Shown: one piece after another, positions 48,199-48,979 of the stretch
Numbering within the stretch: position 1 is the first letter of the stretch
Layout of the letters: each line of letters starts with the position of its first letter
The notes under the pieces: generated by a model
The model's database searches: none
Seen by the model: the letters and a program-made list of their open reading frames with translations, nothing else
What the model was told of the DNA's origin: nothing
Translations under genes and position numbers: made by a program
Assembly: GCA_044892505.1 (NCBI GenBank)
Contig: CM097882.1
Coordinates: 163,680,001 to 163,744,000, forward strand
Length of the DNA: 64,000 nt
From: Schmidtea nova
Lineage: Eukaryota
Reading direction: 5' to 3'

Positions 48199-48417
48199 AT
48201 GAGTCATCGCAGAACAAAGGAAATGACGTCATCGATGAGTCATCCAAGACCCCCCCGATGACTCATAAATGACGTCATCGATGACTCATAAATGACGTCA
48301 TCGATGACTCATCGATGACTCATCGATGACTCATCACATGACTCATCGATGACTCATCGATGACGTCATCGATGACTCATTTCAAATTTGAATTTTATGA
48401 CGTCATCGATGACTCAT
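48199..48417. promoter_or_regulatory. Cluster of 11 AP-1 (ATGACTCAT/ATGAGTCAT) and 5 CRE (ATGACGTCAT) sites
   Basis: Counted directly; sites are often joined by CATCGATG. Confidence 0.8.
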
Positions 48418-48514
48418 TTCAAATTCAAATTTTAAATTTAAATTCCCAAGGGTCCAATAAGGTCAGACCTTCAAACAAGGGTATCATTCGAAAGGTCTTT
48501 TAAAGGTCTATCCA

Positions 48515-48805
48515 ATGGTCATACCCTCGAGGGTGTATGGAGGATCCTTAACCTTCAAGGGGTCAAAAACCTTCAACCTTTTACAATCCTTATAATATAC
48601 ATATCAAACAAAAGGTAATTGGGAGGTAAGTAAGATGGTCATACCCTCGAAGGTGTATGAAGGATCCTTAACCTTCAAGGGGTCAAAAACCTTCAACCTT
48701 TTACAATCCTTATAATATACATATCAAACAAAAGGTAATTGAAGGGTGCACACAATGGTCATACCTTCCAAGGTCTATGGTGGGTGCTCAACCTTCAAAG
48801 GGTAC
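48515..48805. repeat. 120-bp tandem repeat (about 2.4 copies) rich in AAGGT/ACCTT
   Basis: atggtcatacc recurs at 48515, 48635 and 48755. Confidence 0.9.
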
Positions 48806-48840
48806 AAAACAAGGATATAAAGGTAAGTACGGTTTTCTTA

Positions 48841-48979
48841 ATGACTCATTGGTATGAGTCATTGGGATGACTCATTAGTATGACTCATCAATATGACTCA
48901 TCAGTATCACTCATTGGTATGACTCATCAGTATGACTCATCAGTATGACTCATCAGTATGACTCATCAGTATGACTCAT
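48841..48979. promoter_or_regulatory. 13-bp tandem array of 10 perfect AP-1 sites plus 1 variant
   Basis: Unit approximately atgactcatcagt. Confidence 0.8.

Follow-up and report, generated by a model that had tools for sequence, protein, structure and literature searches.

The AP-1 and CRE consensus sequences are sites for Jun/Fos/ATF/CREB factors. Several viruses carry host-factor sites that serve replication or early transcription. Adenovirus ITRs contain sites for NFI, Oct-1 and ATF, and further examples are the 21-bp CRE repeats of HTLV-1 and the major immediate-early enhancer of HCMV. Adenoviruses replicate by protein priming, as Polintons do, but do not integrate. To our knowledge, the sites in these three viruses are few and of mixed type, and none of them forms a dense array of 26 bZIP sites.

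Two described systems come closer. Baculovirus hrs are repeated, non-coding viral DNA in which palindromes are combined with CRE and TRE motifs, the targets of host bZIP factors. They serve as enhancers and as replication origins, and the number of CRE/TRE sites correlates with enhancer strength (PMC13513840, in excerpt). According to the same excerpt, hrs are dispersed in a circular genome and consist of units of ca 72 bp with a 30-bp imperfect palindrome that is bound by the viral protein IE1; each hr has 2-13 CRE-like and 0-2 TRE motifs. The second system, LTR10A/F, is a retroviral LTR of primates, thus the terminal repeat of a mobile element, with a tandem array of AP-1 sites only (28-30-bp unit, up to 33 copies). 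Its repeats drive enhancers of host genes and can influence neighbouring host genes when MAPK signalling is active, as established by ChIP, reporter and CRISPR experiments (doi 10.1126/sciadv.ado1218, in excerpt).

Polintons (Mavericks) have terminal inverted repeats (TIRs) of 46-1,447 bp with (AGT)2 or (AG)3 ends (excerpt of PMC8097293); their general features are treated in excerpts of PMC6431247 and 10.1101/2023.08.22.554363. The excerpted parts of PMC8097293 and 10.1101/2023.08.22.554363 give end motifs and TIR lengths, with no transcription-factor arrays. Polinton insertions are known to affect the expression of host genes. In Caenorhabditis elegans they alter the host locus eri-6/7; this effect is structural (inversion and trans-splicing) and not that of an enhancer (PMC11414722, in excerpt).

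The window analysed here is a stretch of 64,000 nucleotides from the genome of Schmidtea nova. One block of it (48179-49238) holds two arrays of AP-1 and CRE sites. An exact recount agrees with the initial annotation, which had given 11 AP-1 and 5 CRE sites for array 1 and 10 AP-1 sites with a 13-bp spacing for array 2. Array 1 has 11 copies of TGASTCA (48200-48416) and five of TGACGTCA (at 48224, 48270, 48293, 48361 and 48398), all of them perfect. Its cores are mostly joined by CG or AA at a pitch of 11-12 bp, and each of the five CRE cores is followed by CG and then an AP-1 core. Array 2 has 10 perfect copies of TGASTCA (48842-48978) at a 13-bp pitch and is built from 11 units of 13 bp, each with a 9-bp core and a variable 4-bp spacer. 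The unit at 48906 has one changed base and hence an imperfect site, so that one spacing is 26. A and T flank all 26 sites, which thus have the extended form ATGASTCAT or ATGACGTCAT. The remainder of the window (60,171 non-N bases) contains four copies of TGASTCA and none of TGACGTCA. When the block was shuffled (2000 dinucleotide shuffles), the means were 0.305 TGASTCA and 0.039 TGACGTCA, with maxima of 3 and 1. The observed 21 and 5 sites are thus clustered far above background. As the sites are tandem copies, this is an enrichment, but not a series of 26 independent events.

Table 1. Features at the gli-1/Polinton junction, with coordinates in the 64-kb window.
Feature	Position	Strand	Evidence
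gli-1 coding exon 2	41609..41902	-	tblastn, aa 43-141 of S. mediterranea GLI-1 (P0156), 94%
gli-1 first coding exon, ATG at 47585	47457..47585	-	tblastn, aa 1-43 of S. mediterranea GLI-1 (P0156), 91%
Single-copy AT-rich host DNA, gli-1 ATG to insertion	47586..48178		single-copy contigs
Candidate target-site duplication, hexamer of host DNA that adjoins the terminus on the left	48173..48178	+	partner not in window
Left terminus of element, 5'-AGTAG	48179..48183	+	depth step, contig ends, variant termini
Array 1: 11 ATGASTCAT and 5 ATGACGTCAT cores	48199..48417	none	site count; self-complementary
120-bp tandem repeat between the arrays, 2.5 copies	48513..48809	none	high depth in 4 of 4 runs
Array 2: 10 perfect AP-1 sites and 1 variant	48841..48979	none	repeat and site count
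30-bp repeats with three AACAAAG motifs	48991..49068	none	sequence
CGCG-rich inverted repeat, perfect 9-bp stem, two copies	49151-49173, 49212-49234		adjoins gap
Assembly gap (928 N) between terminal block and element body	49239..50166		
pPolB, protein-primed polymerase	50434..54426	-	PF03175, E=3e-22, above cut-off, C-terminal 699 aa
Adenain-like maturation protease (Peptidase_C5)	56867..57226	-	PF00770, E=3.1e-06, above cut-off
Double-jelly-roll major capsid protein	57297..58517	-	AlphaFold2 (pLDDT 86.5) and Foldseek
Minor capsid protein, candidate	58887-59939		position only, no profile match
Retroviral-type integrase with chromodomain, two separate frames	59909..60953	-	Pfam: integrase PF00665, E=9.5e-09 (60555-60953); chromodomain PF00385, E=4.4e-05 (59909-60349)
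A32-like packaging ATPase	61566..62189	-	PF04665, E=1.1e-06
TBP-fold protein, head-to-head with ATPase	62279..62746	+	PF00352, E=6e-15

Host-factor arrays in the ends of viruses and transposable elements are well known, so that what is unexpected here is which element carries them, how dense they are and where they lie. Unlike the sites of baculovirus hrs, those described here match the consensus exactly, are predominantly AP-1 and recur every 11-13 bp; they lie at the end of a linear element that is integrated, and no IE1-like partner is known for them. The arrays were rejected as a true baculovirus hr because of their 11-13-bp units and their Polinton carrier; they may nevertheless work like one. 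Compared with LTR10, the carrier is a virus-like DNA element, the pitch is 11-13 bp, and AP-1 and CRE sites are mixed.

The block contains further repeats (Table 1). The AACAAAG motif of the 30-bp repeats is HMG-box-like. At 49151-49234, beside the gap, a 61-bp duplication is present, but a single copy may be the commoner state; in each of two sequencing runs (X3 and X4, see below), 10 contigs have a TG run that replaces the first copy before 49189. The Rfam search of 47400-50434 returned no match, so no known RNA is encoded there.

The extent of the element was assessed with contigs from four of five runs (X1-X4, leaving out X5 with a share of 0.12), which were placed on 46470-64000 at 88% likeness. 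All four are from one organism and one study, and one of them may be the source of the assembly. The summed contig depth, which is a crude measure and not a copy number, is 12-140 for the pair of bins that precede 47640 and rises to 1e5-1e6 for the pair that covers the arrays. In X1 and X2, a single-copy contig without differences starts at 47843/47844 and ends at 48202, about one word length into the repeat, with a depth of 33.8 against a flank of 36.7 in X1 and of 9.4 against 11.9 in X2. As this contig crosses 48178/48179 unbroken, the junction is real. For X3 and X4, none of the pieces listed (32 of 170,571) is a single-copy contig across this position. An empty-site branch was not seen in X1 and X2, as judged from contig breaks in data from which rare variants are dropped. 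Among 24 of 9,048 rows, X1 has 17 contigs that differ in their first 12 bases and also start with AGTAG, preceded by mixed AT-rich letters. Together with the depth step and the contig ends, these variants fix the terminus at 48179, and the arrays begin 20 bp inside it. AGTAG and the subsequent A match five of the six bases of the vertebrate (AGT)2 Maverick end motif, with AGTAG being common to the variant termini. Within the 64-kb window, CTACT together with the hexamer of 48173-48178 was not found. These data support the block as the end of a repeated element.

The genes to the right of the gap are those of a Polinton/Maverick. They include pPolB, a retroviral-type integrase and a capsid module (major capsid protein, ATPase and protease). 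The depth step, the AGTAG end and its variants bear out what the initial annotation had called a terminal region. A whole-protein Pfam scan of the pPolB frame missed PF03175 and gave PF02945 below the cut-off (E=0.0015). The capsid model matches the capsids of iridovirus, PBCV-1 and mavirus in Foldseek (best E=3e-16); a profile search against PDB sequences had no match, so that this assignment was decided by the fold search. The core gene set and a terminal block within the TIR range of 46-1,447 bp agree with the Polinton/Maverick description as excerpted in PMC8097293, and the terminus resembles its AG-type ends.

The element genes diverge at ca 62.2 kb and point to the ends. The arrays are therefore downstream of every element gene seen, and the nearest element start codon is at least 5 kb away. 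The block has no TATAWAW box. Gene orientation and the lack of this box speak against a simple promoter reading of the arrays. The element within the window had also been said to encode no recognisable bZIP protein, and this holds for the frames scanned: Pfam found none in 11 ORFs and 16 further frames (27 in total), and a pattern for the bZIP basic region had no match in the six frames of 48179-64000.

Two observations concern the region upstream of pPolB. Tandem arrays with 43- and 35-bp units are found at 54667-55252, just upstream of its start, and contain 13 copies of TCATAAAATCRAT, which is absent elsewhere in the window. We take TCATAAAATCRAT to resemble a posterior-Hox/Cdx site that overlaps a Onecut site; these arrays look like a second host-factor array of the Polinton. 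A small frame at 55289-55591 (minus strand), also upstream of pPolB, has four PLIRD repeats and apparently is part of a spliced gene; it has no family match above the cut-off.

The terminal block is likely linked to the Polinton across the gap of 928 N, and we infer that it is one arm of the TIR. We consider it improbable that the block terminates some other element, be it non-autonomous or a satellite, or that the scaffolder joined it from another copy. The gap itself lends weight to such a separation, since no bridging joint or piece is among those listed (15 of 579 joints, 32 of 170,571 pieces; short AT-rich joints, such as 48166 to 55398, were treated as noise). An inverted partner of the block is not among the 25 longest of 614 inverted pairs in the window, and blastn of the block against the body did not find one. 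The summed depth of the 120-bp repeat and of array 2 is far above that of pPolB. However, repeats alone pile up depth, and the excess could stem from repetition within the block or from related elements with few genes. At position 48247, in a spacer of array 1 that is unique, the depth is 3,561-6,769x the flank in the four runs, which is of similar size to that at three pPolB positions (1,531-9,085x, four runs; nine rows were chosen for this comparison among 40 listed of 619). Also at odds with a separate element is the layout. The DNA on both sides of the gap is repeated, and there is no single-copy DNA between the terminus and pPolB. The AGTAG end faces inward to pPolB, with ca 2.2 kb from the terminus to the pPolB stop codon. 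Orientation and spacing thus fit a single element. Furthermore, block and body share the ACAAAGAC octamer of the 30-bp repeats, which occurs three times in the block, four times in the 13.8-kb body (three of them non-coding, at 56163, 56203 and 63955) and twice in 46 kb of host DNA. The depth at 50306 (within 50190-50379), as far as this crude measure goes, is ca 280x the flank in X1 and 50-75x in X2-X4; the X1 excess may be a strain difference or may be due to extra subfamily copies.

The two arrays differ in unit length and in spacers and have only the core in common. This bears on the view that they are neutral minisatellites, grown from a single chance palindrome through slippage. Tandem repeats abound in the element and the sites are not independent, which would suit this view. 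In array 2, deviations from the commonest base affect 2 of 99 core positions and 10 of 44 spacer positions (Fisher p=1e-4 for one copy, a value inflated by the shared descent of the units), and one of the two deviating core positions still fits the consensus. When the minimum number of independent changes is counted, there are four in the spacers and one disruptive change in the cores, a marginal result (p=0.045, one copy). Nevertheless, slippage would have to account for two arrays with different periods that converge on one core, and for 16 of 16 perfect cores in two lengths in array 1. In addition, the family majority retains the full site where this copy deviates: at position 48908 of the imperfect site, 93-98% of the placed contig depth reads the full site in all four runs. 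We consider neutral slippage very improbable.

Array 1 mixes 7-bp and 8-bp forms of the core, which correspond to the two half-site spacings of bZIP dimers. It also folds strongly as single-stranded DNA (-76 kcal/mol, z=-12.2, with none of 200 shuffles as strong), as is expected of any run of palindromes. Array 2 folds no better than its shuffles (z=-0.9, with 34 of 200 folding equally well), so that the trait common to both arrays is the core sequence and not a hairpin. A hairpin as the joint role of both arrays was rejected on this result. A broader alternative is that the arrays are replication or integration signals, recognised by an element protein or through DNA structure, with the AP-1/CRE match being incidental; in its structural form, subterminal palindromes would form hairpins on the displaced single strand. 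The location is suggestive, as the arrays begin 20 bp from the terminus, where the origins of protein-primed replication and integrase sites lie. The fold of array 1, the CGCG hairpins further in and the lack of element genes that start nearby point the same way. We nevertheless hold this alternative to be unlikely, because array 2 has the same core without excess folding, the spacers vary freely, the alternation of 7-bp and 8-bp forms is exactly the bZIP grammar, and the frames scanned encode no DNA-binding protein of the bZIP type. The kept and extended cores, their two alternating lengths, the variable spacers and the absence of a common fold favour a predicted role in protein binding rather than as a hairpin.

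We thus propose the block as the left-hand terminal repeat of a planarian Polinton with many copies, and its arrays as a putative landing pad for host bZIP factors. We assign a probability of ca 55% to this reading. Jun/Fos-type dimers are predicted to bind ATGASTCAT and ATF/CREB-type dimers ATGACGTCAT. The arrays may have arisen by tandem amplification of an optimal bZIP site. Stress or wound signalling would raise the level of bZIP factors, which would open the chromatin at the element ends. The nearest element start codon is distant, so that the arrays would have to act from afar or to help a terminal origin. Bound bZIP factors might thus be a distal enhancer for the early genes of the element, and they possibly assist a terminal replication origin, similar to baculovirus hrs. 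Planarian jun-1 and fos-1 are wound-induced (PMC5515462, in excerpt). Planarian Polintons are piRNA targets; SMEDWI-2 represses them, and part of this silencing is lost in differentiation (PMC8532177, in excerpt). They are also over-represented in the B compartment (PMC10558129, in excerpt). Given this silencing and compartment enrichment, the sites may be closed in vivo.

The host gene next to the terminus is the Hedgehog effector gene gli-1, which acts in the choice between tail and head. It is broadly expressed, stem cells included (PMC5153250, in excerpt). The initial annotation had placed Gli about 6 kb away and had suggested that the arrays are a stress- or wound-inducible enhancer that could act on it. 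The distance had to be corrected, as the first coding exon of gli-1 was located by tblastn; probably exon 2, which is 6.3 kb off, had been taken for the gene start. From the gli-1 ATG, the terminus is 594 bp away, the first site 614 bp and the last site 1,394 bp. The enhancer idea itself finds partial support: the conservation pattern suggests bZIP-type binding, the block terminates a repeated element beside Polinton genes, and jun-1 and fos-1 respond to wounding in planarians, which regenerate.

The first coding exon also matches aa 1-49 of Dugesia japonica GLI (P0146) with 65% identity (tblastn). The zinc-finger exon (12.7-12.96 kb) is 100% identical to D. japonica GLI and 98% to S. mediterranea GLI-1, while the variable N-terminal exons have 85-94% to S. 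mediterranea and 65-83% to D. japonica, which marks the host as a Schmidtea-like planarian. The gene is transcribed away from the element, which lies upstream of its ATG. A candidate splice acceptor, read from the sequence, is found 42 nt upstream of the ATG (minus strand, ending at 47628). The insertion may therefore be upstream of the gli-1 promoter or in a 5'-UTR intron. That the sites are placed to act on gli-1 would be a by-product of insertion unless shown otherwise. Because of Polinton silencing and the B compartment, the insertion could equally dampen gli-1 or do nothing.

Other mobile DNA was observed within gli-1. The second coding intron (24 kb) contains a gypsy-type retrotransposon (28955-32846, minus strand; gag-like, RT, RNase H and integrase) and a fragment of a DDE_1 transposase (37864-38595, plus strand). 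A gli-1 intron also contains a stretch with weak similarity to the block's first 70 bp (20170-20257, minus strand; 83% over 36 bp). It was the best of 448 host tiles (score 48, with 31 for the next locus), has degenerate bZIP sites and is possibly an old relic of a related element end. Elsewhere in the window, an ORF at 2956-3732 (plus strand) has an Hsp90 fragment fused to a ubiquitin domain and is near a retroelement-type ORF with DUF1759 (4402-4755).

Relatives of the element and similar site arrays were looked for among proteins, viruses and metagenomes. The capsid protein has many relatives (155 proteins), all being protein records without DNA context. Scans of IMG/VR with the capsid confirmed none among 57 and none among 24 candidate stretches, and the scan with the ATPase none among 10 candidates. 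With pPolB, two of 27 candidates were confirmed; the one Polinton-like virus recovered is distant (L008, 33% pPolB identity) and has no array near its one visible end. The composite of CRE, CG and AP-1 had no match in IMG/VR. A triple-site pattern was found in three IMG/VR stretches, all on one giant-virus contig (L002, triple ATGASTCAT at 651-683, 1584-1616 and 5063-5095). These repeats were rejected as a regulatory array because the motif is coding there: it makes up the Met-Thr-His-Thr repeat with which the genes of a repeat-protein family begin. In metagenomes, the composite was found in four short contigs, which have no Polinton gene and no similarity to the block beyond the motifs. Three of the four contain loose ATGASTCA clusters, so that a motif cluster is not specific to Polintons. 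Contigs L004, L006 and L007 are short and AT-rich, have 17, 9 and 21 AP-1/CRE-type motifs, respectively, and are almost free of ORFs.

The literature searched, which covered few subscription journals, did not yield any description of bZIP arrays at the ends of Polintons. The main text of the four-species Schmidtea genome paper (PMC11410931) does not contain the terms Polinton, Maverick, AP-1 or bZIP. Annotated planarian Polinton sequences in repeat databases could already contain the arrays. What is new is a carrier for which bZIP arrays have not been described, an unusual density and a location beside a key patterning gene, gli-1. The arrays very probably belong to a Polinton terminus and most likely work like the bZIP enhancers of viruses and transposable elements.

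The terminal repeats of Polintons have been characterised mainly through their length and end motif. For the question of how Polintons are switched on in animals, a perfect bZIP array points to a host pathway that can be tested, from JNK/ERK to Jun/Fos/ATF, and wounding induces Jun/Fos-type factors within hours in planarians. It is tempting to speculate that a Polinton family reads wound signals via its end arrays and scatters injury-responsive enhancers, and that this copy has put gli-1 under wound control in the Schmidtea lineage; we regard this as a rather improbable extension. In any case, the locus would offer a natural test, in an animal that regenerates, of whether patterning genes obtain injury-responsive enhancers from mobile elements.
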